Assembly: GCA_964502145.1 (NCBI GenBank)
Contig: CAZCVI010000009.1
Coordinates: forward strand, 73,438-137,437
Direction of reading: 5' to 3'
Origin: an uncultured Clostridia bacterium
Lineage (GTDB): Bacteria; Acidobacteriota; Aminicenantia; UBA2199
Length of the DNA stretch: 64,000 bases
Shown piece by piece: positions 5,242 through 56,283 of the stretch. Numbering within the stretch: position 1 is the first letter of the stretch; each line of letters starts with the position of its first letter. The notes under the pieces were generated by a model. The model saw nothing but the letters and a program-made list of their open reading frames with translations. It was not told the origin of the DNA and ran no database searches. A program made the translations under genes and the position numbers.

Positions 5242-5250
5242 TGGTATAAT
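5242..5250 (+). promoter_or_regulatory. Extended -10 promoter (TGGTATAAT) upstream of the AlbA_2/HATPase gene
   Basis: AAAAAACCATGGTATAATATAATGG lies about 20 nt before ATG 5271. Near-identical context recurs at 17945 and 47638. Confidence 0.45.
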
Positions 5251-5270: not shown

Positions 5271-6488
5271 ATGACGCAATTTATAAATTATACAGACGAC
5301 CAGCTAAAGTCGCTATTAGATGATCTCGAAGCAGACAATGCGGAGCGTAAAGAGAGTTGGAGCGACGATGCCAAGGACAAAGGCCGACAGGCGGTGTGTG
5401 CTTTTGCCAATGATCTTCCCAATTACCAAAAACCGGGAGTCCTTTTTGTAGGTGCCAAGGATGATGGCACTCCTTCAGGTTTAGAGATCAGCGATAAATT
5501 ATTACAGACTTTGGCGGATATCAAAACCGACGGACAGACTTTACCACCACCCACTATTATCGTTCAAAAACGGAAACTAAAAAACAAGGACATGGCCGTG
5601 GTGTTTGTGCTACCTGCTGATACTCCACCCGTTCGTTACAAGGGTAGAGTCTGGATTCGCACAGGTCCCAGGCGTGGCATTGCTACCGCACAGGATGAGC
5701 GTATTTTAAATGAAAAGAGACGATTTAAGGATAAATATTTCGATAGTGCGACAGTGCCAGGAACATCCCTCTATGACCTGAACCGCTTGCAATTCGAACA
5801 GGAATTTCTCCCCAATGCTTTTGCAGTGGATATTTTGGAAGCAAACCAACGCTCTTACGAGGAACGACTGGCATCACTTAAAATGATTGAATCTGTGGAT
5901 AATCCCATACCTACGATATTGGGTTTATTGGTAATCGGGAATAGACCACGTGATTTTCTTCCAAGTGCATATGTGCAATTTTTAAGAATTAATGGCGTGG
6001 GATTGGCTGACCCGATCGTCGATTCTGAAGAGATTGATGGAACAATAGGGCAAATCATCAGGAAGCTTGACGAAAAAATGACCTCACATAATCGTATTGC
6101 CGTGGACATCACTTCCGCCTCCCTGGAACGAAGAAATGCAGACTATCCACTCGTTGCCCTGCAACAACTGACACGAAACGCCTTAATGCATCGTACCTTT
6201 GAGGGCACAAATGCTCCAGTCAGGGTATATTGGTTTAATGACCGCATCGAAATATTCAATCCCGGTGGCCCATACGGAGAAGTAACGGCTGAAAATTTTG
6301 GGCACCCGGGAATAACCGACTATCGCAATCGAAACTTGGCCGACGCCATGAAAGTATCCGGTTTTGTGCAACGATTTGGCGTGGGTATTTCTATCGCTAA
6401 TAGAGAGCTGGAGAAGAACGGTAATCCCCCCTTCAGTTTCGATATTCAACCAACGGTTATTCTTATTACTGTAAGGAAGTCAAAATGA
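5271..6488 (+). CDS. AlbA_2 (Schlafen-like putative DNA-binding) + HATPase_c_4 domain protein, the family often annotated 'RecG-like putative transcriptional regulator'
   Basis: N-terminus VCAFANDLPN...GVLFVGAKDDGTPSGL...RYKGRVWIRTGP matches AlbA_2. C-terminus LTRNALMHRTF...IEIFNPGGPYG matches HATPase_c_4. Confidence 0.7.
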   Translation: MTQFINYTDDQLKSLLDDLEADNAERKESWSDDAKDKGRQAVCAFANDLPNYQKPGVLFVGAKDDGTPSGLEISDKLLQTLADIKTDGQTLPPPTIIVQKRKLKNKDMAVVFVLPADTPPVRYKGRVWIRTGPRRGIATAQDERILNEKRRFKDKYFDSATVPGTSLYDLNRLQFEQEFLPNAFAVDILEANQRSYEERLASLKMIESVDNPIPTILGLLVIGNRPRDFLPSAYVQFLRINGVGLADPIVDSEEIDGTIGQIIRKLDEKMTSHNRIAVDITSASLERRNADYPLVALQQLTRNALMHRTFEGTNAPVRVYWFNDRIEIFNPGGPYGEVTAENFGHPGITDYRNRNLADAMKVSGFVQRFGVGISIANRELEKNGNPPFSFDIQPTVILITVRKSK

Positions 6489-7483
6489 GTATCCCAGTTC
6501 TGACCTTTTTTAATAATAAAGGTGGTGTTGGAAAAACATCACTCATATACCATTTAACATACATGTTTGCTGAACTGGGTAAACGAGTATTAGCCGTGGA
6601 TCTAGATTCACAAGCCAACCTAACGGCTGCTTTTCTTGATGAAGAAGAGTTGGAAGCACTCTGGGAGGGAAATGAACCAGATTCCACTATATCTAAAATT
6701 ATCTCGCCACTGACCGGTGTCGGGGATATCCTAGAACCAAAACCCAGACATATTACGCATCATATTTATTTAATCCCAGGCGATGTAGCCTTGTCTGGAT
6801 TTGAAGAAACTTTAGCTGGCGAATGGCCGAATAGTATGGGGGATACCCTGCTATACCGTCCATTCAGAATTCTTACCGCTTTTTGGCAAGTGATGCAATT
6901 AGGCGCAAAAAAAATAAATGCAGATATTATATTGGTTGATATTGGTCCCTATCTCGGTGCGATTAACAGGTCAGTTTTGATTGCTACCGATTACGTTATT
7001 ATTCCACTGGGTACCGACCTTTTTTCGATTGAGGGGTTGAAAAATCTTGGTCCAATATTACGGAGTTGGCGTAACTTGTGGAAAAAGAGGTTGGACAACT
7101 GGGTTAAGCCTGAATTTATTCTACCACAGGGCAAAATGTCGCCTATTGGCTATGTATGCCAACAACATGGTGTTCGGTTAAGCCGCCCAGTTAAAGCCTA
7201 TGACAAATGGATAAACAAAATTCCCGATGTGTATCGTGAAAGCATTCTTGGAGAAAGTCCAAACGGGATGACACCTGCCGAAGACCCTCTCTGCTTAGCC
7301 ACTATCAAACATTTCCGTAGTCTTATCCCAATGGCCCAAGAACAACGGAAACCAGTGTTTAAATTGACTCAAGCTGATGGCGCTATTGGCAGCCATGCAC
7401 AATCTGTTAATAATGCTTATTCAGATTTCAAAATCCTGGCCAAAAAAATCGCGGACATCATTCATTTGGAAGGCTGCCAGTAA
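6485..7483 (+). CDS. ParA/Soj/MinD-family P-loop ATPase
   Basis: Deviant Walker A FNNKGGVGKTS, A' motif AVDLDSQANLT, Walker B ILVDIGP. The start overlaps the upstream stop (ATGA). Confidence 0.8.
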   Translation: MSIPVLTFFNNKGGVGKTSLIYHLTYMFAELGKRVLAVDLDSQANLTAAFLDEEELEALWEGNEPDSTISKIISPLTGVGDILEPKPRHITHHIYLIPGDVALSGFEETLAGEWPNSMGDTLLYRPFRILTAFWQVMQLGAKKINADIILVDIGPYLGAINRSVLIATDYVIIPLGTDLFSIEGLKNLGPILRSWRNLWKKRLDNWVKPEFILPQGKMSPIGYVCQQHGVRLSRPVKAYDKWINKIPDVYRESILGESPNGMTPAEDPLCLATIKHFRSLIPMAQEQRKPVFKLTQADGAIGSHAQSVNNAYSDFKILAKKIADIIHLEGCQ

Positions 7484-17021: not shown

Positions 17022-17879
17022 ATGAAACGCTTTGTAAAACGATATATGCCCGATTCCATAAAATCTCTATTCCGTCGCCTTTATTATCGTTTCCCAGTTT
17101 TACGGCGCATCTATTATCTCCCGGTCAACCTGTGGGAATGGCTACAAGGAAAGCGAAAAGGATTGCGACCGCCACGTTCAAAGATTTTTGTGGGGGATGG
17201 GAATTTCGAGATTATTGGTCAGGAATTTTTGAATTATTTTATTGAGTTGTGTCATTTGAAACCCACAGATAAAGTTCTGGAAGTAGGGTGTGGAATCGGG
17301 CGTATGGCCATACCTTTGACACGTTATCTGAATAATCAAGGCACTTACATTGGAATGGATATCGTGCCCGAAGGTATAACTTGGTGCCAGCGTAAGATCA
17401 CCCCCCAGTTTCCCAATTTTACTTTTTTTCTATCTGACATTTACAATGATCAATACAACCCAAAGGGACGTTTGCCAGTGATGGAGTATGTTTTTCCATT
17501 GGCTGATGGTTCGTTTGATTTCGTATTCTTAACCTCCGTTTTCACCCACATGTTGCGGGCGGATATCGATCACTATCTGGCGGAGATTAGCCGGGTATTA
17601 AAACCAGGAGGCCGATGCTTGATTACTTTTTTTCTACTTAATGACGAAACCCTGGTTTTGTTAAAAACCAGAGATCATCCGTTCAAGTATACTTATGAAG
17701 ACTGCTTGGTTATTGACAGCAAAATGCCCGAAGCGAGTATCGCCCACCCGGAACAAAAAATCCGCGCGCTCTGTCTGTCCCACCAGCTCAAAATCGTGGA
17801 ACCGATTCTCTACGGCAATTGGAGCGGCAGGGAGAAATACGTATCTTCCCAGGACATGCTTTTGGCTGTAAAAATTTAA
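17022..17879 (+). CDS. Class I SAM-dependent methyltransferase
   Basis: Motif I VLEVGCGIGRMA and post-I LKPGGRCLITFF. Confidence 0.75.
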   Translation: MKRFVKRYMPDSIKSLFRRLYYRFPVLRRIYYLPVNLWEWLQGKRKGLRPPRSKIFVGDGNFEIIGQEFLNYFIELCHLKPTDKVLEVGCGIGRMAIPLTRYLNNQGTYIGMDIVPEGITWCQRKITPQFPNFTFFLSDIYNDQYNPKGRLPVMEYVFPLADGSFDFVFLTSVFTHMLRADIDHYLAEISRVLKPGGRCLITFFLLNDETLVLLKTRDHPFKYTYEDCLVIDSKMPEASIAHPEQKIRALCLSHQLKIVEPILYGNWSGREKYVSSQDMLLAVKI

Positions 17880-17944
17880 ATATAAACTTCGACTGTCCCG
17901 TTATATTTATTGGTATATGCAAAAAAAAGCCACTATGGTATAAT

Positions 17945-17953
17945 AATATAGAA
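17945..17953 (+). promoter_or_regulatory. Extended -10 promoter (TGGTATAAT) upstream of the TIR operon
   Basis: AAAAAAAGCCACTATGGTATAATAATATAGAATGG, about 20 nt upstream of ATG 17974. Paralogous to the 5242 and 47638 promoters. Confidence 0.45.
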
Positions 17954-17973: not shown

Positions 17974-18582
17974 ATGAGCTACCAATACGATGTCTTTTTA
18001 AGTTACAACCGAAAGTTCCCCCACGGTCAGTGGGTAGATGAGATTTTTTATCCATTGTTTGTTCCCTACCTGGAAGATGCCCTGAATCAAAAAGTATTGA
18101 TATTCAAAGACACCGAAGAGATTAATACCGGTTCTGCTTGGCCCCATAGATTAAAGAATGCAGCCGTCCATTCGAAATGTATGGTATCCATTTTTTCGCC
18201 CGCTTATTTTCTTTCGGAATGGTGCATGAAAGAATTTGCCATCATGTTTTACCGGCAAAAGCAATTGGGATATTTAACACAAAAAAACCCTGATGGATTG
18301 ATTGTTCCCGTTAAAATCTTCGATGGTGAGCATTTCCCTGAGTATGCAAATTTTTTGCAGATGTTAGATTGTCGGGATTTATTTCTTGTCGGCGAGGGAA
18401 TGAAGCAGGCAAAATCTTATATGGATTTGCAAACACGCTTACAGAGATGGGTCTACAATGTAGCTAAAGTTATAAAAAACGCCCCGGAATGGGACAACCA
18501 ATGGCTGGAGAAGCATTGGTTGGAACCACTGGCGGCTAAAAAAAACTGGGCAGCAATACAAGAGGAGAAACCAATCCTATGA
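17974..18582 (+). CDS. Stand-alone TIR-domain protein (ThsB-like)
   Basis: YDVFLSYNR start. Conserved S-x-WC-x-x-E region SPAYFLSEWCMKEF, with the Glu in the position of the TIR NADase catalytic residue. Confidence 0.8.
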   Translation: MSYQYDVFLSYNRKFPHGQWVDEIFYPLFVPYLEDALNQKVLIFKDTEEINTGSAWPHRLKNAAVHSKCMVSIFSPAYFLSEWCMKEFAIMFYRQKQLGYLTQKNPDGLIVPVKIFDGEHFPEYANFLQMLDCRDLFLVGEGMKQAKSYMDLQTRLQRWVYNVAKVIKNAPEWDNQWLEKHWLEPLAAKKNWAAIQEEKPIL

Positions 18583-20048
18583 GTCAAGTCATAACTTTTT
18601 ATTCTTTTAAAGGCGGTGTTGGTCGTACCATGGCGTTGGCTAACGTGGCAGTTCTATTGTCGCAATGGGGATATAAAACGTTAGTTGTTGACTGGGACCT
18701 GGAAGCACCTGGGCTGGAAAATTTCTTCAAAGAATATATCAATTTAGAAAAGATTTCCAAAAGAAAAGGCCTGATCGAATTGTTAAATCCCAAAGATGCA
18801 ACTGAAAAAAAATTTACCTGGAAGGACTTGCGGATTCCAGTATTCATTCCTGAAGGTCAGGAGCCCATTCACCTGCTCACTGCTGGCGACCGCAGCAACG
18901 GCTATTACGACAGAGTGAGAAATTTTGATATTGATCTGTTCTATAAAAAGCAGGACGGCGGGCAAAAGATTGAACAACTGCGGGAGGAATGGAAAGCAGA
19001 ATACGATTTCGTTCTGGTGGATAGCCGTACCGGTATTACCGACAATGGAGGTATTTGTACTATTCAACTCCCAGACATCCTTGTCTTGCTTTTTACCGCC
19101 ACGGACATAGGACTAAATGGGATATTGGATGTCGCTCAGCGGGCAGTTAAAGCCCAACAGTCACTCGCTTTCGAACGCTTTAAATTGCTAGCCCTGCCCG
19201 TTCCCACCCGCCTTGAAACCGCTCTTGAATTTAAACTATCGCAAGAGTGGATGAATAAATTTTCAAAAGAATTGGAGCCCCTCTATTATGATTGGCTACC
19301 AATCAATGTGGACCGTCTGCAATTCGTTGAATTAACTAAGATTCCTTCTGTTCCATATTTTAATTTCGGAGAAAAACTTCCGGTCATTGAACAGGGCGTC
19401 AACGATCCGGCTGGCCTGGGATATGCATACGAGACTATCACCGCCCTTCTGGCAAACAACTTCCAATCCATCCAAGACCTGATGAATAACCGTGATGCAT
19501 TCATCCATATGGCTGCCAGTAACCGGGGTACAATAATCAAAAGGAAATCCAATCCTAAAGTAACCAATCAACCAGTTAAAATTTTTATTTCCTATTCCCA
19601 TAAAGAAAAAGCGATTAAAAGTATACTGGAATATTATCTGGAAATACTTAAAACAAAAGGATTGGCCACCTTTTGGTCAGATGAAAAACTTTTGCCGGGT
19701 ATGAAGTGGTCTGAAGAGATTGAAAAGAATATCTCTGACTCCCAGGTTTTCTTAATTTTATTAAGTAAAAACTATCTCTCCCCTACCACTTCAGCGGAAT
19801 TGCAGCAAATAGAAAATTTTGGAAAACAAAAGAATATCCTGATAATTCCAATTGTACTCGACGATTCCACTTGGTATCAGGACACCTTTTTAAAAGATCG
19901 TTTTTCAATATGGATGGATTACGCGACAATAAATACCCATGTAAACTGGGAGGAGGCTCTTTTTGAAGTTGTTCAACAGATTGAAAAATCAATTCTTTTA
20001 TATCAACAACAAATCAATGAAACAAAACCTATAGGAGAAGTGAAATGA
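18579..20048 (+). CDS. Fusion protein: N-terminal MinD/ParA-like (SIMIBI) NTPase with a deviant Walker A, C-terminal TIR domain
   Basis: N-terminus FYSFKGGVGRTMALAN (P-loop Lys replaced by Arg), A' VVDWDLEAPGL, Walker B LVDSRTG. C-terminus VKIFISYSHKEK...FLILLSKNYLSPTTSAELQQ, typical of the bacterial TIR_2 family. ATGA overlap with the upstream TIR gene. Confidence 0.75.
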   Translation: MSQVITFYSFKGGVGRTMALANVAVLLSQWGYKTLVVDWDLEAPGLENFFKEYINLEKISKRKGLIELLNPKDATEKKFTWKDLRIPVFIPEGQEPIHLLTAGDRSNGYYDRVRNFDIDLFYKKQDGGQKIEQLREEWKAEYDFVLVDSRTGITDNGGICTIQLPDILVLLFTATDIGLNGILDVAQRAVKAQQSLAFERFKLLALPVPTRLETALEFKLSQEWMNKFSKELEPLYYDWLPINVDRLQFVELTKIPSVPYFNFGEKLPVIEQGVNDPAGLGYAYETITALLANNFQSIQDLMNNRDAFIHMAASNRGTIIKRKSNPKVTNQPVKIFISYSHKEKAIKSILEYYLEILKTKGLATFWSDEKLLPGMKWSEEIEKNISDSQVFLILLSKNYLSPTTSAELQQIENFGKQKNILIIPIVLDDSTWYQDTFLKDRFSIWMDYATINTHVNWEEALFEVVQQIEKSILLYQQQINETKPIGEVK

Positions 20049-21238
20049 TTGCTGAAATAAGCCAAGAAGATTTAAATGTATGGGCGGATTATATCCTGAA
20101 CCATTCTTTGGGGGGCATTAAACCGGATGATATCGTGATGCTTAAAGGGGAACATATCACCTGGCCATTAATGTCTATTTTGCAAGATAAAATTTTTGCC
20201 GCAGGCGCCATTGCCGATATCAACATGGTCGCACCGGATAATAATCGCGGCCAAGTGTGGGGCGCTTCCATTGCCAAACACGGCACGGTCGAACAAATCC
20301 ACCGGGTACCCGCTTGGCATGGGCAACGTTACAATGCTATGACCAAATATATCGAAATCCTGGGCGCAGAAAACCCAGCCCTCTTCGCCAACCTGCCCAG
20401 CGAAACATCCACGGAACTGGTCAAAGCAGATAACCCCTTCAAATCCATCCGTCTCTCCAAACCCTGGATTCTAACGCTCTACCCGACACAAGGTTTTGCC
20501 GACATGGAAGGGTTGTCGCTGGAAAAATACACGGATATCATTGTCAAAGCCTCTACTACAGACCACAAAGTGCTGGGAGAAATCGAGGAACCGCTGGCCC
20601 AACTGATGGAAAAAACCAAAAAGGTCCGCATTCTGACCCATTGTGCCAAAACAAACCGCAACCTGGAATTGGAAATGAATATCGCAACACGCAGGGTCAC
20701 CCGTTGCGTGGGCAAACGGAACTTCCCGGACGGCGAAATCTTCACCAGCCCTGATGCCAACTCGGTGAACGGTGAAATCTTCGTGGACCTGCCAGTTTTC
20801 TACAACGGCGTAACCATCCAGGGCATTTACCTGCATTTTAAAGACGGGGTTATTATCGAATACGATGCCCAAAAAGAAAATGAAACACTGGCCAAGATTA
20901 TCGAAACAGACGAGGGCTCACATCGGTTGGGTGAAGTCGCGCTGGGCATGAACAGTGGTTTACAAACAGCCCTGCAACACCCGCTTTTCGTGGAAAAAGT
21001 AGGCGGTACATTGCACATTGCTATTGGTGAAAGTTACCCGGAAAGTTATGTGGCGAATCCAGCATCAGAAGAAGGGAAAGCCCTGCTGGAGAAATACCAC
21101 CAGGAGGGTATCATCAATAAATCGTCGCAACACGTGGATATTGTCACCGATTTCAGACCCGGTGGCGCAGGAATCGCAGTCTACTTTGACGACACCCAAC
21201 TGGAAATAAAAGATAATATCTGGAGCATCCCCAAATAA
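20045..21238 (+). CDS. M29-family aminopeptidase (AmpS/PepS/aminopeptidase T-like)
   Basis: ETDEGSHRLGEVALG and GGTLHIAIGESY match the conserved M29 motifs (LDTDEGARRLGEVAL, HIAFG). ATGA overlap with the upstream gene. Confidence 0.85.
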   Translation: MIAEISQEDLNVWADYILNHSLGGIKPDDIVMLKGEHITWPLMSILQDKIFAAGAIADINMVAPDNNRGQVWGASIAKHGTVEQIHRVPAWHGQRYNAMTKYIEILGAENPALFANLPSETSTELVKADNPFKSIRLSKPWILTLYPTQGFADMEGLSLEKYTDIIVKASTTDHKVLGEIEEPLAQLMEKTKKVRILTHCAKTNRNLELEMNIATRRVTRCVGKRNFPDGEIFTSPDANSVNGEIFVDLPVFYNGVTIQGIYLHFKDGVIIEYDAQKENETLAKIIETDEGSHRLGEVALGMNSGLQTALQHPLFVEKVGGTLHIAIGESYPESYVANPASEEGKALLEKYHQEGIINKSSQHVDIVTDFRPGGAGIAVYFDDTQLEIKDNIWSIPK

Positions 21239-21295
21239 TAAAAAATCTTTGTAACTGTTCAGCCCATAGGTAATAGATGAAAGAAAGAAAAAGAT

Positions 21296-21383
21296 TTGCC
21301 CACGAATTACACGAATGATCACGAATTTATCGGAAAAAAAACGTTTATTTCCTTTTAATTCGTGACAATTCGTGGAATTCGGT
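21296..21383. repeat. Palindromic element built from CACGAATNN sub-repeats
   Basis: CCCACGAATTACACGAATGATCACGAATT, loop, AATTCGTGACAATTCGTGGAATTCGG. Confidence 0.6.
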
Positions 21384-21436
21384 TATGCCGGGTACAAAAC
21401 CCTGCCAATCTATCCAATTGTGAGGTATTGGAAATG

Positions 21437-21960
21437 TTAATTAGTCGTATGACATTTAGTCGCGCGCTGGCGTGTGCAAGAGACAGGTGACCAATCACGC
21501 GAAACACCGCGGTCAAGCAAGAAATCGCAAGGCGAGAGCGGATGGTATCCGCTCCACGACGAAGACGCGAGCCCTAACGCAAGTGAACTCATTACGGCCT
21601 CGTTACACGAACCGATGACGGTCAAGCTGCCGGATATGCTGAAACCTATCATTCATGGGGAAGAAACGATTAGATGCACCTGTGAAGTCATCCGGGGGAT
21701 TGGAGAGAGCGCGTGTCGAAAGATCGGCAACAGGTCCCGGGAGACCCGCCCCAGTGTATCAACGGAGAGGAATCCGTGATACAAGGGCACATGGGAATCA
21801 ATAACCATGTATCTTGCTGGCGGCGGGAGTCAGAGCGGTCCATAGTAGCGAAGAAGCGGGGTAATTCCCGTGGAGCCAAGGGACTGTACGTTAGTCATGT
21901 ATCCAACAAGAGAGTGAGAACCGCTTGAGCGAAAAACGCTTCACCACGGAAATAAATTTT
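21437..21960. other. GC-rich (~55% by eye) non-coding island carrying overlapping spurious ORFs on both strands; possible structured RNA or decayed mobile-element remnant
   Basis: Composition contrasts with its flanks. Four overlapping track ORFs on both strands have no recognisable protein features. The island sits immediately 5' of the decayed ATPase paralog and replaces that paralog's N-terminal half. Confidence 0.4.
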
Positions 21961-22553
21961 CACTGTCGAGATGGACACTATACCGTGAAGCCAAGCAGGA
22001 AAGTTAACGGAGGAGCAGATACTCCGATTTTTTTGACGTACCTGTGACCGAAGTGACCGCTTTTCTGAGCGCGCAACTGGCAGAAGGAAATCCTTTTTAT
22101 GTCAGTTCTATCTTATGTTCCCAATTCCCAGACAAAGATTTAACCACTTTGGAAGGATTGGTGCGCACCCTGGAATTTGAAACCTTAAACGATAACGGGG
22201 AGATCAAATCTACCTGGATGACTTATGTGAATTCGGCCTTCAACCAAGTTAACAATAAAATTTCCAAGAATATTGTGTTGTATTTATGTAAAAATAGAGA
22301 CCATGAGGTCACCCGCAAAGAGTTATTGGAAAAATTACATCTGGATATGACGGATGGCGAATTAGAGTTCAAACTCAAAGCTCTAATAAAAGCCGATATT
22401 ATCCTCCAAGGAGCGACCAACTACGATTACCACGGGAAGTGGAAGACTTCCTTCGTGAAAAAAGTATCGCCTATACGGAAGATGAACGCTGGTTGGAGCT
22501 TTAAAGGTTTTTTAACCACAGATTACACAGATTCAAATGATTTCCCAGATTAA
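21961..22553 (+). pseudogene. Decayed paralog of the Arch_ATPase/DUF234 gene at 48996-50756: N-terminal P-loop half missing, internal deletion, frameshifts
   Basis: RYSDFFDVPVTEVTAFLSAQLAEGNPFYVSSIL...LYLCKNRDHEVTRKELLEKLHLDMTDGELEFKLKALIKADII aligns with KYSGFFNVPVTEETAYLIAQMAEGSPFYISSIL...LYLCQNRDHEVTRQELLDNLALDMTDRELELKLKALVRADII of the intact gene. After NYDYHG the frame jumps to ...SIAYTEDERWLEL*, which matches the intact C-terminus GIAYSEDERWLEN*. Confidence 0.75.
22516..22552. repeat. Half-copy of the CACAGATTA repeat element
   Basis: CCACAGATTACACAGATTCAAATGATTTCCCAGATTA is nearly identical to the left arm of the palindrome at 50834-50933. Confidence 0.6.
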
Positions 22554-22612
22554 AAAGAAAAAAGTCGCTGTAACGAAATAACCCGATTATTTTTGATGGT
22601 ATTTCGTTACGC
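22550..22612 (-). terminator. Rho-independent terminator downstream of clpA
   Basis: Minus-strand hairpin GTAACGAAATA ... TATTTCGTTAC, followed on the minus strand by TTTTTTCTTTTT. Confidence 0.6.
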
Positions 22613-22672
22613 TCCCTTTGTCGATTTAATTCCGGGCGCAACTGTTCAATAGCAGTAATTGATCATAGTCCC

Positions 22673-24997
22673 CTATTTCTCCAAAACGTCTTTCTTCTTA
22701 CGTCCAACACGCTTTTCCTCATTTGTACTTTGTAGCGTTAAGGTGACGTCGTCACCTCTGATGTCTGCCAAAACTGCACCACCATTGATCAATTGTCCGA
22801 ACAGAACTTCATCCACGAACCACGTTTTGATTTTATCTTGCAACAGACGCGCGACTTCACGGGCACCGAAAAGTTTGGAGTATCCTTTTTGGGCTAACCA
22901 GAGATAACATTCATCCGTAACCGTTAGCGTCACCTTTTTATCTGCCAATTGCGTGGAGAAAAGATCGAGGTTTTTCTTGACAATAAGTTTCACATGGTCT
23001 TCGGTCAGTTGCCCAAAAGAAACGACCGCGTCCAAACGGTTGCGGAACTCGGGGGAGAAATGTTTTTCCACTGCTTCTAAAATTGCGCTGGTATCGGTAG
23101 AGCGTTCATCAAAACCAATCTGCGTTTTCCCCAGTTTGCGAGCACCGGCGTTGGAGGTCATGATAATAATCACGTTGCGGAAATCTGCTTTTTTGCCGGT
23201 GTTATCGGTGAGGGTCGCGTAATCCATGATTTGCAGGAGCGTGTTGAAAATGTCCGGGTGGGCTTTTTCAATTTCATCCAATAATAACACGGCATGGGGT
23301 GTCTTGCGAATGGATTCGGTTAATAATCCACCCTGCTCAAAACCAACATATCCGGGCGGGGAACCAATCAAACGGGCCACGGCATGTTTTTCCTGGTATT
23401 CAGACATATCAAAACGATGCAACGGAATACCCAGGGTATTGGCGAGTTGGCGCGTTAATTCTGTTTTACCTACACCGGTGGGACCGACAAAAAGAAGCGA
23501 AGCCACCGGTTTATCTGGTTCTCTGAACCCGGCACGGGCACGTTTGATGGCCTGGGTTACCATTTCTATGGCCGGGTCTTGGCCGAAGATTTGTTTTTTT
23601 AGCTCCGATTCCAGTTTTTTCAGCTTGTGCGTCTCGTTTTCGGTCACGGTTTTTTCCGGGATACGGGCGATCTTGGAAACGACTTCCTCAATCCCTTTAC
23701 GTTTAATACTCACCCGCTTTTCCGAGTTGTCCGGGTGCTTCATACGAATCCAAGCGCCCGCCTCATCAATCACATCAATGGCTTTATCCGGCAAGTAGCG
23801 ATCATTGATGTATTTATTGGAAAGATCCACGGCGGCTTCCAGGGCACTTTCACTGTAAGACACATGGTGGAATTCCTCGAACTTTTCTTGCAGACCTTTG
23901 AGAATAGCGAGTGTTTCGGTGGGCGTGGGTTCGGGTATCTCGATCTTTTGGAACCGACGGGAGAGGGCACGATCTTTTTCAAAGAATTTTTTATATTCGT
24001 CATAGGTGGTGGAACCAATACACTGCATCTTGCCGCTGGAAAGGGCGGGTTTAAGGATATTGGAGGCATCCATGGAACCACCAGACACGGCACCCGCGCC
24101 TACCAAGTTATGGATTTCGTCGATAAATAAAATGGCTTTGTCTTCTTGCAGTATCTCGTTGAGCACGCGTTTCATGCGTTCTTCAAAATCGCCGCGATAT
24201 TTTGTACCGGCCAATAAACCACCCATGTCGAGTTGGTAGATTTTGGAACCTTTAAGTGGCAAGGGCACTTTATCCTGGGCGATCAAACGGGCCAGACCTT
24301 CGGTGATAGCTGTTTTGCCTACGCCCGGTTCGCCCACGTGGACCGGGTTGTTTTTAGTTCTGCGACAGAGTATTTGCATGGTTCGTTCGATGATATCTTC
24401 TCTGCCGATGATTGGATCGATTTCGTCGCGGGCTGCTTTCGCGGTTAGTTCGGTTGTGAACATGTCCAGGTACTTTCGTTTTGTTTTTTTATCTGCTTCC
24501 CGTTCACTTGATTCTGGTACGGTTTGTTGATCGCCTATGGCCCCGTTTTCCGGGTATCCGCCATCCGGGACCACCGAGATGCCGTGGGAGATGAAGTTCA
24601 GAATATTGAGGCGCGAGATGCCTTGTTGTTCTAAAAAAGTCACGGCAAATGATTCTTTTTCAAAGTAGATCGCGGCGTACATATCACCGATATCCAAGAC
24701 ATTTTTGCCTGCGGAAACAACGTGGAGCATGGCGTTTTCGACCACGTTTTGGAAACCTTCTGATTGAATGGGGTCTTTGCCGTTACTTTCCGGGATATAA
24801 CCTGCTTTAAAAAAGGTATCCAGCTCGATTTTCAAACCATTAGCATTGCCACCACACGCGGTGACAATTTTCGTGCCACCGCCGAAGAATAACGACGCAT
24901 AGAGGATATGTTCCGGTGTCACGTACTCGTGGGTCCGGGCCTTTGCCTCGTTGTAAGCGGCGGTGATTATATTATTAAGTTCTTCACTGATTTTCAT
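22673..24997 (-). CDS. clpA: ATP-dependent Clp protease ATP-binding subunit ClpA
   Basis: Clp N-domain plus two AAA+ modules (GEPGVGKT and GPTGVGKT Walker A motifs). Genomic context with clpS. Confidence 0.95.
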   Translation of the reverse strand: MKISEELNNIITAAYNEAKARTHEYVTPEHILYASLFFGGGTKIVTACGGNANGLKIELDTFFKAGYIPESNGKDPIQSEGFQNVVENAMLHVVSAGKNVLDIGDMYAAIYFEKESFAVTFLEQQGISRLNILNFISHGISVVPDGGYPENGAIGDQQTVPESSEREADKKTKRKYLDMFTTELTAKAARDEIDPIIGREDIIERTMQILCRRTKNNPVHVGEPGVGKTAITEGLARLIAQDKVPLPLKGSKIYQLDMGGLLAGTKYRGDFEERMKRVLNEILQEDKAILFIDEIHNLVGAGAVSGGSMDASNILKPALSSGKMQCIGSTTYDEYKKFFEKDRALSRRFQKIEIPEPTPTETLAILKGLQEKFEEFHHVSYSESALEAAVDLSNKYINDRYLPDKAIDVIDEAGAWIRMKHPDNSEKRVSIKRKGIEEVVSKIARIPEKTVTENETHKLKKLESELKKQIFGQDPAIEMVTQAIKRARAGFREPDKPVASLLFVGPTGVGKTELTRQLANTLGIPLHRFDMSEYQEKHAVARLIGSPPGYVGFEQGGLLTESIRKTPHAVLLLDEIEKAHPDIFNTLLQIMDYATLTDNTGKKADFRNVIIIMTSNAGARKLGKTQIGFDERSTDTSAILEAVEKHFSPEFRNRLDAVVSFGQLTEDHVKLIVKKNLDLFSTQLADKKVTLTVTDECYLWLAQKGYSKLFGAREVARLLQDKIKTWFVDEVLFGQLINGGAVLADIRGDDVTLTLQSTNEEKRVGRKKKDVLEK

Positions 24998-27804: not shown

Positions 27805-30453
27805 TTAATTGGCAATAATCACATTCTCCAGCAGGAAAGGTACGCTTTCCTGCGTGGCGGTATCCACGGCTATGGCACTGAGGGTGTATGTGCCATTGGG
27901 ATAAAGGGTGGTGTTGAGAGATACATTAAAAATGACCTCTTTCTGTGGGCTTTCATGCCAATCATCGACCAATTGAGTGCCCAAATATAATCGTATTGCT
28001 CCTACTCCCTTGTAATCATTGGCATAGACAGCGACTTTAACGGTTCCGCTTAGGGGCGAGGTATTGGGCGTGAGCTGGATGCCAGTCACGGTGGGGGGAT
28101 TATCGACAACAGTCACAGAAATAGAATCGGTATCAATTTGATCGGCGAAATCGTAGACGATGGTTTTTATTTGATGGGGGCCAGCGAGCACATTGGCAGT
28201 AGACCAATCATACCTGTAAGCAGGGACGGTGACAGTTTCTTTTAGTATGTCATCGACATAAAACTCCACTTTTTTAACCCCAAAATCATCTCTGGCCACT
28301 ACATTGATGGTGACATCGCCGGAAACGATATCACCGTCATCAAGGTCTTTAATAGAAATTTGCGGCGGTGCGCCAAAACCGTTATCCAGTTCTGTGGCGG
28401 TAATATCCATGTCTTTAACACCTTGGGCGGAGATGCGGAGAACAGCCACGCCATTTTTATCAATAACCTCGGTAGGGTCCTCGTCTTTGGCGGCTTGGAC
28501 GGTAACAGTTTGCAAGGTACTCCAGTCGGAGGTGGAAAAAACAAGTTGTGGGTTTGAGGTGATGCTGATATCGGTATCACCGCTAAAACGGATTACGTTG
28601 GCGGTGATGGAGGTGGTGGGTTTGGCGGTGAGTCGAACCTGAAAGGTGCGGGTTTCAGTCTCTGGAATAGTGAACGGGGTGTCAATAATGACCTCAAAAC
28701 TAAGGGTGTTTTTGTCTATGACTGTAACAGGTACATCAATATCGGTAAACCCGTCGGCACGAAAGCGGATGGTGCCGGTATCGTTCAATGCATCATCATC
28801 CTTGGCTGCAGACACGGTAACGTCTTGGAACGTGTCATAGTTGCTGGCATCAAAAATTAAACTGGTTACTGGCAGGGTGATATCACTGGAACTGTCATTG
28901 ACGGTGCTGACCTGGACGGTCAAAGGGCTGATGGGAGCGGCGGAAATTTTAACTTGGATGATCCCGCTTGCGCCCTCGTCGAATTCCACATGATCTGGGT
29001 CGATCACAAAATGAAATGCATCGTCATCGATCACTGTCACATAGACAAATTTGTCCTCCATATCTGCGGCACTGACCCGAATGACCGCGTATCCATTAAC
29101 GGTATCGGGATCATGGTTGGCATAGACGGTGACGGATTGCTCCACCCTGAAATTTTCAGCGTTAAAAGTAAGCATGCCACCGGGCGGGGCAGGGATGGTA
29201 ACTGTTTTATCGCCACTCACCCAACTGGCAGTCACGGTTACGGGGGTAGTGGGTGCGGAAATCAAGCTAACCTGGAACCTGGCGTCTTCATTCTCCCTTA
29301 CCACCAAGTTCTCGACGGAAATTTTTAAGCCGAGAGAATCGTTATCTATTTCCTTGGCCAGAACAATTTTGTCAGGGATTCCCCCGCCCGGGTTTTGGAT
29401 ACGAATATGTGCCTCACCATTGATGATATCGTCATCTGACCTGGCGTATAATACAACGGTTTGTTCGACTTGATAATTGCCCTGGGTGAAGGTGATCAAG
29501 TTCCCGGAGGTAACCTGGAGGTCCATGTCGTCACTTACCTCGCCAGCATTATTGACGGTAACAACGACATCGTTCTGGGGTTTGGCGGAAAGGCGCAAGG
29601 TAAAGGTAGCGGTGCCGTTCTCAGGTACGTTCACGATATCGGTGTTGGTGATGAACCCGACCTTATCGGCACTGACAGTGAGGGTATGATTTTTGTTCAT
29701 GGTAACGGTGCCATTTACCGCGACTTCCACGCCGTCGAGCCGCACGGATAGATTGCCGTAGCCGTTTTGGGCGGAAAAGCTGTAAGGTACGGTCTCGTTC
29801 TTGCGGTAGATGTGGTTCCCGGCGATAGGAACGCCAGTGACACCTTCCCCGGTATTGATGGTCAGGGTATATTTCTTGCTTTTCTTGATCAGAATATACA
29901 CGGTAGCGCCCACTAACACGGCGCCAGCGGCCACGAGGAACCAGGGGAATTTTTTCTTTTTACGTGTGCCCGGACCAAAAATCATCTTGGACAACACGTG
30001 TTTTTTGTACAAGGGCAGGCTGTTCAAATCTATGCCGGGGACCTGGGTCACATGGCATTCATCCACGGCTTTTTTGTAATTTTCCACGGCCAGGTCATTG
30101 ACGGAATCTTTTTCATAGATAGCGCCCATCAATAGAAAAGAGCGGCCCATTATTTCTTTGAGTTCCATGTTCTTTTCTAAAATAATTCCCACTATCCCTT
30201 CAAGACGTTTTAGCGCGTTTACTTTTTGCCCTTTTTTATAACTCTCGGCAGCCCGTTGAAATTGATTTTGGATTTCATCATTGCTCTGCGCGAGCAACAT
30301 GAAGTCCATCTGCCAAAGAAACGTAACTATAACAAATAAAACAATAATTTTTTTCGACAATGTGATTCTCTCGGAGTTTTGATTATACGTCACAACTGTA
30401 TTAACTCCCCGGATTTTCTTCTTTAATACATCTAAAACCTTCTTCATCTTCAT
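27805..30453 (-). CDS. Large surface/secreted protein: N-terminal TM anchor and TPR-like region, then multiple Calx-beta/Ig-like beta-sandwich repeats
   Basis: 882 aa with hydrophobic segments (IIVLFVIVTFL; FPWFLVAAGAVLVGATVYILI) and a Thr/Val-rich repetitive C-terminal beta region. Confidence 0.6.
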   Translation of the reverse strand: MKMKKVLDVLKKKIRGVNTVVTYNQNSERITLSKKIIVLFVIVTFLWQMDFMLLAQSNDEIQNQFQRAAESYKKGQKVNALKRLEGIVGIILEKNMELKEIMGRSFLLMGAIYEKDSVNDLAVENYKKAVDECHVTQVPGIDLNSLPLYKKHVLSKMIFGPGTRKKKKFPWFLVAAGAVLVGATVYILIKKSKKYTLTINTGEGVTGVPIAGNHIYRKNETVPYSFSAQNGYGNLSVRLDGVEVAVNGTVTMNKNHTLTVSADKVGFITNTDIVNVPENGTATFTLRLSAKPQNDVVVTVNNAGEVSDDMDLQVTSGNLITFTQGNYQVEQTVVLYARSDDDIINGEAHIRIQNPGGGIPDKIVLAKEIDNDSLGLKISVENLVVRENEDARFQVSLISAPTTPVTVTASWVSGDKTVTIPAPPGGMLTFNAENFRVEQSVTVYANHDPDTVNGYAVIRVSAADMEDKFVYVTVIDDDAFHFVIDPDHVEFDEGASGIIQVKISAAPISPLTVQVSTVNDSSSDITLPVTSLIFDASNYDTFQDVTVSAAKDDDALNDTGTIRFRADGFTDIDVPVTVIDKNTLSFEVIIDTPFTIPETETRTFQVRLTAKPTTSITANVIRFSGDTDISITSNPQLVFSTSDWSTLQTVTVQAAKDEDPTEVIDKNGVAVLRISAQGVKDMDITATELDNGFGAPPQISIKDLDDGDIVSGDVTINVVARDDFGVKKVEFYVDDILKETVTVPAYRYDWSTANVLAGPHQIKTIVYDFADQIDTDSISVTVVDNPPTVTGIQLTPNTSPLSGTVKVAVYANDYKGVGAIRLYLGTQLVDDWHESPQKEVIFNVSLNTTLYPNGTYTLSAIAVDTATQESVPFLLENVIIAN

Positions 30454-32719
30454 CCCTCCCCAAACGATTTTTACTGATCTTTAAATCTTCTTTTGAAGAA
30501 AAAAAGCTTCCCCCTTTTAATATATTCCCTTTCACCCACTCCCAAACATTGCCGGCCATATTAACGACATTAAAAGGAGAGGCAAAGGCCTCGAAACTTT
30601 TAACGGGTGCGGTGCCGCTGTACCCGTCTTTTTCCACGGATTCTTCGAGGGAGTCAAAGTTGGCACGCCAGATCCCCCCGGCGTCAGGCAACTCTTCACC
30701 CCAGGGATACGTGGTATCTCCTTTCCCAGCGACATATTCCCATTCCTCAAGCCTGGGCAAACGGAACCCATATTGCTTGTTGTACTTTTCAGCCTCAGCA
30801 TACCACACAACAACGGGGAACTCGTCCTCATTGCGGATGAATTTACTGTTTTTTTTGGTTGGTCGGCTGATATTTAGGGCTTTCAGGAACCGCCGGTATT
30901 GTGCATTGGATACTTCATACTTATCGATCCAGAAATTTTTCTCCGGGATATACATCATGTGATGGAAATTACGATCCTCACCGAAGGTGTATTCATAATA
31001 TCCCTTTTTATTTTTAACAATGGCACCGTCCCAGTACTTTTCGGGGGGTAAGCGGCGTTCTGTCCTGGTTAATTGTTCTTTTAGCTGGTTGAGATAAATA
31101 GAATCGGGGTAGTTGCGTTTAAAATCGAGATAAGCATTCAGAGTCACGGTGTCTTTGATATTTTGGTAAATCGTTTTGCCGTTTTGTTTTTCAAAATCCC
31201 GGCGTTTTTGTTCCAGGGTTTGTGCCAGTTGTTTAATTTCCTCGTTCTCCGGCCCCATTAATGCGCTGGCTTTTTTTAATTGAAGGGAAGCGGCCTCGTA
31301 ATCATTGGCATTGATTTGCAGGGCGGCGGCGTCGATAGCAACACGGAATTCCTGTTGGGTCCGAATGGTTGTATCGAGTGTTTCCATGGTTTTAGCCAGG
31401 TTCTTCAGTATCTCTTTGCCCATGGGGTCCTTTTCCATATCGCGATAGCTATAGCGGAATTGGCGGCATCTTTTTTGTTTTTCAATGTCTTGGGCTTGGC
31501 TGGCCAGGAATAAACCAAGCTCAGCATATGTTTTTTGCATCTCCGCCAGACGCACGGGTCCTGGTTGCGATTCGGAAAGGGGGTCCACCTGGGAATTTTT
31601 TTTGTCAGGGGGCAGGGGCGGAGTAGTGATAGGGTGACCCTGGGTCTTTGCTATTTTTATATCTGGCGCGAATTCTTTTCCAACTCTTTTCCCAGAATCA
31701 CCTGAAAAGGGTTGGAAGATCAAGGTGGCACCGATCAGGATACATATCAAAATGCTGGCATACACTGCCCAAAGTGGTAAGCGTCGTTTCACAGAGCGGG
31801 GAATTTTTTTGATGACGTGAATTTCCCGCAAAGCTTCCCTGAATTCGAGGGCGGATTTATAGCGATGGGTTGGAGCTTTGGCCATGGCAGTGGCCAGGAT
31901 TAGGTCGGTTCCGGGTGGTAAGACTGGATTTTTAGCACACACGGAGGGCACAGGTTGACTGCGGTGGGCATTCATCACCTCGATAAAATTCCCTCCTTTA
32001 AAGGGGGTATCCCCGGTCAGCATTTCAAACAACACGACGCCAAAGGAATAAATATCCAGGGCAGGCCCTACATTACTACTGTCCAGAAATTGTTCGGGAG
32101 CCATATAGGCGGGGGAACCGAGGAGGGCACCGGTGGTAGTTAACTTGGTGCCGCCAACAATGTCCTTGGCAATACCAAAATCAATGATAACGGCTTCACC
32201 GGTAGCTTCGCGGATCATGATGTTAGAGGCTTTGATGTCCCGGTGGATAATATTGCAGCTATGCATGGCTTCCAATGCTTCCAAGACGTTATTGGAGATA
32301 TCTATGGCCTGACTAATATCTATAGGGGCGTTATGCTTGATGAATTCAGCGAGATTCTCGCCCCGGATATAACTCATGATAAAATAGGGTATTTCGATAT
32401 CCTCTATGGGATCGGCCAGAACGCCCGTATCGTAGATTTCAACAATACTGGGATGATTGATTTTCTCATAAAGCCGGGCTTCAGAAATAAAACGCCGTTT
32501 GATTTCATTGAATTTGGGTTTCACATCGGAGAGATTTTGTTTCTTTAATCGTTGCAACAGATAGTGATAATCGAGTATTTTTAAGGCCCGGTCCTCGCCA
32601 GTGGGGGTATATTTCATCAGGTAGACATTGGAATATTCACCGCCCCCCAAGTGTTTGGTGAGTTTATAGCTACCGCTTAATTCATGCAAAATGGCATCTA
32701 AAATAGTATCCTTCTCCAC
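30401..32719 (-). CDS. Ser/Thr protein kinase fused to an FGE-sulfatase (SUMF1-like) domain
   Basis: Kinase motifs GGGEYSNVY, HRDIKASN, DFG, APE. A TM segment follows. C-terminus RLPRLEEWEY...NVWEWV...GGSFFS matches the FGE-sulfatase domain. Confidence 0.85.
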   Translation of the reverse strand: MEKDTILDAILHELSGSYKLTKHLGGGEYSNVYLMKYTPTGEDRALKILDYHYLLQRLKKQNLSDVKPKFNEIKRRFISEARLYEKINHPSIVEIYDTGVLADPIEDIEIPYFIMSYIRGENLAEFIKHNAPIDISQAIDISNNVLEALEAMHSCNIIHRDIKASNIMIREATGEAVIIDFGIAKDIVGGTKLTTTGALLGSPAYMAPEQFLDSSNVGPALDIYSFGVVLFEMLTGDTPFKGGNFIEVMNAHRSQPVPSVCAKNPVLPPGTDLILATAMAKAPTHRYKSALEFREALREIHVIKKIPRSVKRRLPLWAVYASILICILIGATLIFQPFSGDSGKRVGKEFAPDIKIAKTQGHPITTPPLPPDKKNSQVDPLSESQPGPVRLAEMQKTYAELGLFLASQAQDIEKQKRCRQFRYSYRDMEKDPMGKEILKNLAKTMETLDTTIRTQQEFRVAIDAAALQINANDYEAASLQLKKASALMGPENEEIKQLAQTLEQKRRDFEKQNGKTIYQNIKDTVTLNAYLDFKRNYPDSIYLNQLKEQLTRTERRLPPEKYWDGAIVKNKKGYYEYTFGEDRNFHHMMYIPEKNFWIDKYEVSNAQYRRFLKALNISRPTKKNSKFIRNEDEFPVVVWYAEAEKYNKQYGFRLPRLEEWEYVAGKGDTTYPWGEELPDAGGIWRANFDSLEESVEKDGYSGTAPVKSFEAFASPFNVVNMAGNVWEWVKGNILKGGSFFSSKEDLKISKNRLGRDEDEEGFRCIKEENPGS

Positions 32720-55759: not shown

Positions 55760-55860
55760 GCATACCTCTTATTTGAATTTTAAATATAATCCTTCTAGAT
55801 AAAAAAGTCAATATGAAAATAGGAATTGACAAATAAAAACAAAGTCACTATCATTATACC

Positions 55861-56283
55861 ATGAAGATTAATACAAAAATTAGATACGGTTTGCGTATGC
55901 TGGTATTGTTGGCTGAATCAGGTGTTGTGATGAGTACTGCCAATTTGGGCAAACAAATGCAGGTCTCTCCCAAGTATTTACGAAAACTGGCGGGTCCTAT
56001 GGAACGGCACGAACTGATCAAAAGTGTGCAGGGTATTTATGGCGGGTACGCGATCAATAAACAACCAGCAGAAATAACCTTGTCTTCCATTTTTACGGCT
56101 TTCGAGGAAAACATCAATATCACAGGTTGCAGCAGTAAAAATGGCTGCCCCCTGAGTGTGGACTGCCTCACCAAACCGGTGTGGTCCCATTTGGAACAGC
56201 TCATTGCTAAAGAATTCCATCACATATCTATCCAAATGATCCTCGATCAACAATTCGCCATCCCTGCTCTGGTAGCCGAATAA
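55861..56283 (+). CDS. Rrf2-family transcriptional regulator (IscR/NsrR-like, with three Cys)
   Basis: N-terminal wHTH TKIRYGLRMLVLLA. Cysteine cluster GCSSKNGCPLSVDC. Confidence 0.85.
   Translation: MKINTKIRYGLRMLVLLAESGVVMSTANLGKQMQVSPKYLRKLAGPMERHELIKSVQGIYGGYAINKQPAEITLSSIFTAFEENINITGCSSKNGCPLSVDCLTKPVWSHLEQLIAKEFHHISIQMILDQQFAIPALVAE

Follow-up and report, generated by a model that had tools for sequence, protein, structure and literature searches.

A 64,000-nt stretch of DNA from an uncultured Clostridia bacterium (NCBI GenBank assembly GCA_964502145.1, contig CAZCVI010000009.1, positions 73,438 to 137,437 of the forward strand; GTDB lineage Bacteria, Acidobacteriota, Aminicenantia, UBA2199), referred to below as the window, was analyzed around three consecutive forward-strand genes. 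The first, g1, encodes a stand-alone TIR protein, the second, g2, a MinD/ParA-fold nucleoside triphosphatase (NTPase) fused to a second TIR domain, and the third, g3, an M29 aminopeptidase. A first-pass annotation, made from the sequence alone, had proposed a three-gene TIR/NTPase-TIR/M29 system. Following comparison with related loci, the conserved unit was reduced to g1 and g2, for which the notion of a coupled TIR-based module of an experimentally uncharacterized kind stood. On balance, and with moderate confidence, the pair is read as a conflict module of two genes, in which a ParA-like nucleotide switch would connect a constant TIR NADase with a C-terminal module that varies.

Conservation of the TIR-ATPase gene pair

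Relatives of g2 were collected using one genome per species, resulting in 595 relatives, and gene neighborhoods were counted at the best 80. In 73 of these 80 loci, a g1-like open reading frame (ORF) was located directly upstream of the ATPase gene and in the same orientation, the two genes abutting or overlapping. A contig end truncates at least one of the seven unpaired loci (L086), and in at least one unpaired actinomycete locus (L089) a long upstream ORF resembles the divergent FxsC of L090. Pairing was independent of the C-terminus of the ATPase (TIR, NB-ARC/TPR or WD40) and was found in Bacteroidota, Acidobacteriota, Planctomycetota, Chloroflexota, Cyanobacteria, Actinomycetota, and Pseudomonadota, mostly in large-genome, developmentally complex groups. 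Similarly, the pair was present in all eight lineages of a close-relative set, consisting of the window, L004, L006, L116, L009, L011, L013, and L014.

All-against-all clustering of 522 neighbor ORFs yielded no third gene common to all loci, and the two-gene pair was therefore taken as the conserved unit. Additions were clade-specific only: Fxs-type loci carry a radical-SAM gene, and Pseudonocardiaceae-type loci (L047-L085) a conserved gene of about 1,036 aa. The latter gene follows the pair in 23 loci, 13 of which also have a gene of about 208 aa there, which suggests a sensor module encoded in trans in these loci.

The family to which g2 belongs comprises thousands of relatives. An exhaustive phmmer search of 1.84 billion representatives with the ATPase domain returned 2,192 clusters (50% identity) at E <= 1e-30, in which the KGGVGR domain was nearly always N-terminal and protein lengths ranged from 234 to 1,612 aa. 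A metagenome scan using g2 alone gave one useful partial locus (L099), the remaining matches being weak or irrelevant. Six viral contigs from IMG/VR (L110-L115) encode proteins of 616-1,096 aa with a KGGVGR-like N-terminal domain and no g1-like TIR gene upstream. These ATPases may form a sub-family of their own or derive from host DNA that was binned as viral, and they lend no support to phage carriage of the pair.

Domains and conserved residues of the two proteins

Scans with hidden Markov models (HMMs) and PADLOC recovered the domains expected from the first-pass annotation, which were TIR_2, AAA_31/CbiA/ParA and Peptidase_M29. For g2, the assignment as a MinD/ParA-class NTPase joined to a TIR_2 domain was borne out by both Pfam and Foldseek. 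Pfam placed AAA_31/CbiA/ParA at the N-terminus, and the NCBIfam model NF047398 ('KGGVGR-motif variant AAA ATPase') matched residues 3-187 with 143.1 bits, compared with a cutoff of 90. Together with the FKGGVGRTM motif at residues 10-18, this score places g2 in the KGGVGR family. The PADLOC model PDC-M28B matched residues 3-175 (2.3e-22). An AlphaFold2 (AF2) model built from 43 homologs had a mean predicted local distance difference test (pLDDT) score of 86.3 and comprised two domains separated by a disordered linker at residues 320-327. Foldseek analysis of residues 1-310 returned Soj (2bek/1wcv; target-normalized template modeling (TM) score 0.77-0.79), followed by MinD, FlhG, and ParA.

Following sequence alignment to MinD, K11 of g2 fell on the signature Lys and R16 on the P-loop Lys. 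Residues K11, G12, G13, G15, R16, D38, D40, and D148-S-R-T-G152 were invariant in 43 close relatives and, small differences aside, were kept in 51 distant relatives as well. The P-loop Arg itself was invariant in both sets, and KGGVGR[TS] was found in every member of the family. Such invariance of the pocket points to a ligand-binding site under selection and not to a decayed site. The canonical P-loop Lys (KGGxGK[ST]) is needed for ATP hydrolysis. By general P-loop enzymology, the Lys-to-Arg exchange in g2 should slow or abolish this reaction. An 'inactive MinD/ParA-like' domain has been described in conflict systems (Kaur et al. 2020, eLife 9:e52696) and is probably the same as the KGGVGR domain.

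The C-terminus of g2 was matched by Pfam TIR_2 (7.6e-17, residues 335-432) and TIR (7.4e-15) and carries the FISYSHKE motif at residues 335-342. It was also matched by the PADLOC ThsB1 model (2.8e-16), and profile searches of the PDB returned Cat1, TLRs, and AbTIR. The Glu in the catalytic position is E407 (codon 19797-19799), which was kept in 35 of 43 relatives. Among these 43, mean identity was 57% in the ATPase domain versus 29% in the C-terminal TIR domain; immune proteins typically show such a contrast between a conserved core and a rapidly evolving module at the periphery. Variation extended to the type of domain, since 51 sampled ATPase members ended in TIR_2 (22), TPR (12) or NB-ARC (7), the others including CATASP, DUF7779, and WD40. 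Pentapeptide repeats, NACHT, nucleoside phosphorylase (PNP), and PF19964 modules were found elsewhere in the family. The C-terminus is a swappable module of the ATPase family, in which the TIR gene and the KGGVGR domain stay constant.

The g1 product is predicted to be a small catalytic TIR protein with Glu87 at the NADase position. It was matched by Pfam TIR_2 (1.5e-11) and by NCBIfam FxsC_Nterm (2e-12), the latter with 47.4 bits and thus under its cutoff of 130; FxsC_Cterm gave no match. The AF2 model, obtained from an alignment of database homologs, showed a compact TIR domain (pLDDT 88.2, predicted TM score 0.85), followed by a tail of low confidence that starts near residue 184. The solved folds nearest to this model in Foldseek were the TIR domains of plant NLR proteins (L7, RUN1, RPP1, SNC1) and AbTir, and a profile of the g1 family (42 members from many phyla) aligned best with the same plant TIR domains (2e-12).

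The SEWCMKEF segment, to which the first-pass annotation had drawn attention for its Glu at the catalytic position, corresponds to residues 81-88, and this Glu is E87 (codon 18232-18234). E87 was invariant across the 42 diverse family sequences (alignment A2), and its column aligns with the Glu within 'WCLMEL' of L6/L7, the residue that is catalytic in plant TIR NADases. In short, g1 combines a TIR fold with a Glu in the S-x-W-C-x-x-E region, as expected of a catalytic TIR protein. Residues Y3, S10, Y78, R94, and P171 were likewise invariant, and W83 and C84 nearly so. The description of g1 as 'ThsB-like' proved loose, as the protein scored under the PADLOC ThsB models and its profile fitted the plant NLR TIR domains best. 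Its sole PADLOC match was PDC-S66, a model matched by 31 of the 42 family members (best 3.8e-13).

The low-confidence tail of g1 (18523-18579) ends in KPIL in the window. Terminal motifs are conserved in the family: members from many phyla end in PR[LF], and those of the window's clade in [KR]-P-x-L. Speculatively, this conserved terminal peptide on a flexible tail may serve as a docking peptide for the ATPase.

The peptidase gene, the transcription unit and the surrounding window

The three forward-strand ORFs overlap at ATGA stop/start sites (g1/g2 at 18579-18582 and g2/g3 at 20045-20048), as the first-pass annotation had reported, and an AGGAG site precedes the start of g3 in the window. 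Positions of the genes, domains and regulatory features are collected in Table 1.

Table 1. Positions of genes, protein domains and putative regulatory features at the TIR-ATPase locus of the window
Feature	Position	Strand	Remarks
SAM (S-adenosylmethionine) methyltransferase gene	17022-17879		upstream of g1, gap 94 nt
extended -10 box TGGTATAAT, putative promoter	17936-17944	+	30 nt upstream of g1 start; exact coordinates located
g1, TIR protein	17974-18582	+	202 aa
g2, MinD/ParA-fold NTPase fused to TIR	18579-20048	+	489 aa
g2 N-terminal domain, MinD/ParA/Soj-fold NTPase, KGGVGR variant	18579-19520	+	residues 1-314
g2 Walker A, KGGVGRT	18609-18629	+	residues 11-17; Arg16 replaces P-loop Lys
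g2 C-terminal TIR domain	19575-20024	+	residues 333-482
g3, M29 aminopeptidase	20045-21238	+	397 aa
82-nt hairpin	21299-21380	+	∼60 nt past g3 stop; built of CACGAAT(T) repeats

The identity of g3 as an M29 aminopeptidase was supported by Pfam Peptidase_M29 (4.3e-50), and PADLOC gave no match. No M29 homolog was present in any of the 80 species-representative loci. Of the eight close lineages, only the window, L004, L006, and L116 carried M29 downstream of the pair, which confines the adjacency to one Aminicenantes-like sub-clade; M29 did not follow the pair in L009 (g2 59% identical), L011, L013, or L014 (four lineages at 45-59% identity). L004, L006, and L116 have a Kinase-PPPase gene on the other side in common and are therefore regarded as one local synteny. 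Since in these three the pair is separated from M29 by a gap of 50-63 nt without overlap, the g2/g3 overlap is peculiar to the window. In L006-L008, originating from three samples, the M29 gene contains an in-frame TAG at codon 72 (L006 7694-7696), where the window has CAA, and g1 and g2 are intact. The M29 gene of L006-L008 is probably a pseudogene, or else is read through. M29 was conserved far beyond g1 and g2, with hundreds of proteins at 65-84% identity, for the most part in Aminicenantes and Acidobacteriota. Long contigs carried three orthologs with 78-80% identity to the window copy, compared with 75% for the L004 copy, and even by profile search no TIR or KGGVGR gene was detected near these three.

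A three-component system, with M29 as effector or processing enzyme working with the two TIR proteins, would account for the ATGA overlap and AGGAG site before g3 and for the recurrence of M29 downstream of the pair in four related lineages, and protease effectors are known in other TIR systems, such as type IV Thoeris. It is nevertheless judged highly improbable in view of the missing M29 genes in all 80 loci and four close lineages, the amber codon in L006-L008, the gaps outside the window, the conservation of M29 beyond that of g1 and g2, its closest orthologs lacking the pair and the lack of a PADLOC match. M29 genes and the pair were essentially always separate, which the first-pass annotation itself had named as the outcome that would speak against its three-gene system. 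Of the two roles which it had left open for the aminopeptidase, the neighborhood data favor co-transcribed housekeeping over an effector. M29 is a resident housekeeping gene, lying outside the conserved module and translationally coupled to it here; it is co-transcribed solely because, in the lineage of the window, the pair lies immediately upstream of M29.

The methyltransferase gene, 94 nt upstream of g1, was identified correctly in the first-pass annotation. It was tried as a further component and rejected: no methyltransferase accompanied the pair in the 80 loci, and the PADLOC match to 'mad2' spans a generic methyltransferase domain only. In annotation, M29 and the methyltransferase should both stay outside the system, tight translational coupling alone having been misleading here.

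An extended -10 promoter had been placed at 17945-17953. The box, TGGTATAAT, does exist on the forward strand and is located nine bases further upstream, which was the one coordinate to be corrected in the first-pass annotation. The window contains four copies of TGGTATAAT versus 0.67 expected, a number reached in one of 100 shuffles, and every copy lies 3-94 nt upstream of some ORF start; the other three are at 5242-5250 (+), 47638 (+), and 55853-55861 (-). Based on this excess and on the proximity of all copies to ORF starts, TGGTATAAT is probably a real extended -10 promoter element of the organism, and the copy before g1 is the probable promoter of the g1-g3 operon. It was not listed by a two-hexamer promoter scan because no -35 match is present.

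A terminator scan detected no intrinsic terminator on the forward strand between the methyltransferase gene, g1, g2, and g3. The region 21236-21400, which includes the hairpin, had a folding energy of -42.9 kcal/mol (z = -4.66), and the CACGAAT repeats of the hairpin occur at this single site within the window. The hairpin was not called as an intrinsic terminator because it lacks a T-tract; it possibly marks the end of the transcription unit. Past the hairpin, about 650 nt (21400-22040) are without a long ORF, followed by a 169-aa ORF (22044-22553) with no family match. In the window, no Rfam family reached the gathering threshold, and only spurious sub-threshold matches were found at 21200-22700.

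At a distance of a few kb upstream of the pair, L004 (1-3635) and L006 (1-4759) encode a further TIR protein (467-484 aa), PIN, HicB-like and Phd/YefM toxin-antitoxin (TA) genes, a DUF1016/YhcG nuclease and a WD40 protein of 1,500-1,700 aa, and are defense-island-like.

Elsewhere in the window, a gene at 5271-6488 (+) encodes a Schlafen/AlbA_2 protein with a HATPase_c_4 domain and partial PADLOC matches to the Aga PNTD/pAgo models. It is overlapped by a gene for a ParA-type AAA_31 ATPase at 6485-7483 (+), both forming an operon behind the TGGTATAAT copy at 5242-5250. This ATPase was considered as a paralogue of g2 and discarded as unrelated, its Walker A (NKGGVGKTS) being canonical KGGVGK and its NF047398 score only 29.7 bits. 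A 772-aa protein encoded at 30401-32719 (-) consists of a Ser/Thr kinase, matching PADLOC PD-T4-6 at 2.4e-73, and an FGE-sulfatase (FGS) domain; FGS domains are common in conflict systems (Kaur et al. 2020, eLife 9:e52696).

Proposed function and relation to known systems

In the proposed mechanism, g1 and g2 would be produced at a fixed ratio and assemble into a complex. The variable C-terminal module would sense a trigger, presumably derived from an invading element, and nucleotide-dependent dimerization or oligomerization of the ParA-like domain would follow. TIR enzymes need head-to-tail assemblies for activity. The TIR domains of g1, and here also that of g2, would be brought into such assemblies, resulting in an active NADase, and cleavage of NAD+ would cause growth arrest or death of the infected cell; an ADP-ribose (ADPR)-derived signal is also possible. 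The constancy of g1 and the KGGVGR domain, combined with a variable C-terminus that is often a ligand-binding array (TPR, WD40, pentapeptide, NB-ARC), is the pattern expected of a sensor-switch-effector design. By analogy, the logic would be that of NLR proteins, in which a sensor acts through an NTPase switch on an effector, except that here the NTPase is of the SIMIBI class and the effector is encoded in trans.

The evidence for a defense role of the pair is circumstantial. It consists of the presence of catalytic-type TIR domains, the shuffling of modules with NLR-type sensors, an occurrence that is patchy across phyla, the homology to the actinomycete FxsC/FxsT pair, the conflict systems described by Kaur et al. 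2020 and the matches to two PADLOC candidates, PDC-M28B and PDC-S66. The neighbors found at other loci include type I Thoeris, Uma2, AriA, TA modules, and extra TIR genes. Several points weigh against the proposed conflict module. The defense-island context of the pair is modest: many of 145 nearest neighbors (56 loci) are housekeeping genes (EF-G, PheRS, NADH dehydrogenase), in a crude count without a background rate, and the flanking genes in the window itself are of the housekeeping or regulatory type (AmtB, a two-component system, ClpA/ClpS, thymidine phosphorylase). In 2.9 million viral contigs, the pair is essentially missing. As E407 is replaced in eight of 43 relatives, the TIR domain of g2 may be an adaptor and not an enzyme. 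Finally, ATP-driven dimerization is an assumption in view of the Lys-to-Arg exchange, which gives grounds for the 'inactive' label of Kaur et al.

Two further explanations of the pair were weighed. In a relay resembling Thoeris, g1 would be the signal-producing TIR protein (the role of ThsB), the KGGVGR domain of g2 not an ATPase but a receptor of an ADPR-derived nucleotide produced by g1, and the C-terminal module, here a TIR NADase, the effector. A TIR-only gene beside a conserved nucleotide-binding domain with a swappable C-terminal module fits this arrangement, PNP and TIR C-termini are plausible effectors, and the invariant Lys-to-Arg exchange in an otherwise conserved pocket could reflect a changed ligand. 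TIR signaling moreover pairs with about 30 unrelated effector types (Yirmiya et al. 2025). Many of the C-terminal modules are, however, sensor- or scaffold-like (TPR, WD40, pentapeptide, NB-ARC), and the fixed gene order with abutting or overlapping ORFs favors a stoichiometric complex. In Thoeris it is usually the TIR sensor that varies, whereas g1 is more conserved than the C-terminus of g2. A survey that expanded Thoeris to 11 verified types (I-XI) and 29 predicted ones (10.64898/2025.12.03.692087) mentions, in its text and the part of its supplements covered, no ParA, MinD, CbiA, AAA_31, ATPase, or P-loop partner. Taken together, a relay of this kind is regarded as quite unlikely.

The other explanation is a regulatory or developmental module without immune function, for example nucleotide- or NAD-linked signaling tied, as in the FxSxx-COOH system, to the processing of ribosomally synthesized and post-translationally modified peptides (RiPPs), or ParA-like spatial regulation, with TIR as adaptor or as metabolic NAD(P) hydrolase. 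The often housekeeping neighborhoods, the near absence from viral contigs and the large-genome, developmentally complex hosts would suit such a role, and in actinomycetes FxsC and FxsT sit with radical-SAM peptide-maturation genes. Yet the Fxs-linked peptide-processing systems with TIR/AP-ATPase proteins were themselves read as conflict systems (Kaur et al. 2020, eLife 9:e52696). The invariance of the catalytic-position Glu speaks against a role as adaptor only, and patchy distribution combined with swapping of NB-ARC/TPR, WD40, NACHT, and PNP modules is a hallmark of conflict systems. Pfam scanning covered 25 of the larger ORFs of the window, lying between 765 and 41070, of which 13 were also scanned using PADLOC; among these 25, no RiPP genes, radical-SAM/SPASM maturase, metallopeptidase of the Fxs type or FxSxx precursor were found. 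A non-immune role is accordingly held to be unlikely, and the two-gene conflict module is retained as the preferred explanation.

TIR enzymes have a central place in the immunity of bacteria, plants, and animals. To our knowledge, all characterized routes of TIR activation involve STAND NTPases, Argonautes, cyclic-nucleotide sensors or direct phage sensing. Tentatively, the KGGVGR ParA-fold domain could represent a new class of immune switch, in which a SIMIBI dimerizer with a P-loop Arg links interchangeable sensors to a TIR NADase in trans, or in which the P-loop itself receives an ADPR-derived signal made by TIR. If so, the pair would constitute a widespread immune architecture (about 600 species or more, ∼2,200 protein clusters) without characterized precedent. 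TIR combined with a ParA/MinD-fold switch in at least seven phyla, recombined with NLR-type sensors, would add a different activation principle, and a function would be assigned to the actinomycete FxsC/FxsT genes and to the NCBI 'KGGVGR' domain. For biochemical work, the compact form found in the window (202 and 489 aa) offers a convenient minimal version free of repeats.

The first-pass annotation had excluded canonical Thoeris, CBASS, and Pycsar for want of a SIR2, Macro/SLOG, STING, cyclase, or NLR partner. This exclusion stands: in the 25 ORFs scanned, the search for a partner of the SIR2, Macro/SLOG, STING, cyclase, or STAND type gave no match. The locus resembles Thoeris in being a two-gene operon with a stand-alone TIR protein, carrying the catalytic Glu, beside a nucleotide-binding-domain protein with an NADase-type module. 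It differs in that the partner is a ParA/MinD-fold P-loop protein and in lacking any known Thoeris effector or domain for signal binding, such as SLOG or Macro. PADLOC and Pfam detected neither ThsA nor SLOG, Macro, or SIR2 in the operon, and Pfam detected none of them in the flanking ORFs scanned. With the TIR proteins of the STAND/NLR type (Avs/AVAST, bacterial TIR-NLR, plant TNLs), the pair would share the logic of a variable sensor acting through an NTPase switch on a TIR NADase, which becomes active through induced proximity. The TIR domains of plant TNLs are the closest to g1 in profile and fold, and some KGGVGR family members carry NB-ARC/TPR or NACHT downstream. Unlike these proteins, g2 has an NTPase of the SIMIBI class (Soj/MinD/ParA), with Arg for the P-loop Lys and with the constant TIR in trans; its fold is that of Soj/MinD, and no NACHT or NB-ARC match was obtained.

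MinD, ParA, and Soj share with g2 the fold and the signature residues, that is Lys11, Asp38/Asp40 and the switch II Asp at MinD-equivalent positions. The canonical P-loop Lys is missing, as g2 has KGGVGR[TS] and not KGGVGK[TS], and it differs further in having no MinE, ParB, or MinC partner and in its fusion to immune-type modules. The likeness to the PADLOC phage-defense candidates PDC-M28B and PDC-S66 is partial and at the domain level, and PDC-M28A was not matched by any gene of the operon. PDC-M28 and PDC-S66 are computational predictions for which no published validation was found. No paper naming the KGGVGR family or PDC-M28 and no experimental study of the pair were found in the literature, and the top-ranked papers on FxsC/FxSxx-COOH held nothing relevant. 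The first-pass statement that the architecture matches no described system holds only in part: the ATPase domain is covered by a dedicated NCBIfam model (NF047398), the pair is homologous to FxsC/FxsT, an 'inactive MinD/ParA-like' domain is mentioned by Kaur et al. 2020, and PDC-M28B and PDC-S66 are related PADLOC candidates.

The FxsC/FxsT genes of the actinomycete FxSxx-COOH system (NF040588, TIGR04276, NF040586) show the same order, a TIR-like gene followed by a gene for a KGGVGR-domain protein. The pair of L088, for instance, was matched by FxsC (195 and 144 bits) and by FxSxx_TPR (1069 bits) with an N-terminal AAA_KGGVGR domain. These actinomycete loci carry a radical-SAM gene upstream of the pair. 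We know of no experimentally shown function of the Fxs system. The window pair departs from FxsC/FxsT in that g1 is without the FxsC C-terminal domain and g2 ends in TIR instead of NB-ARC/TPR; g1 reached 47.4 of the 130 bits required, g2 gave no FxSxx_TPR match, and only the TIR and KGGVGR core is common to both. The window pair can be described as a stripped-down relative of the FxsC/FxsT pair.

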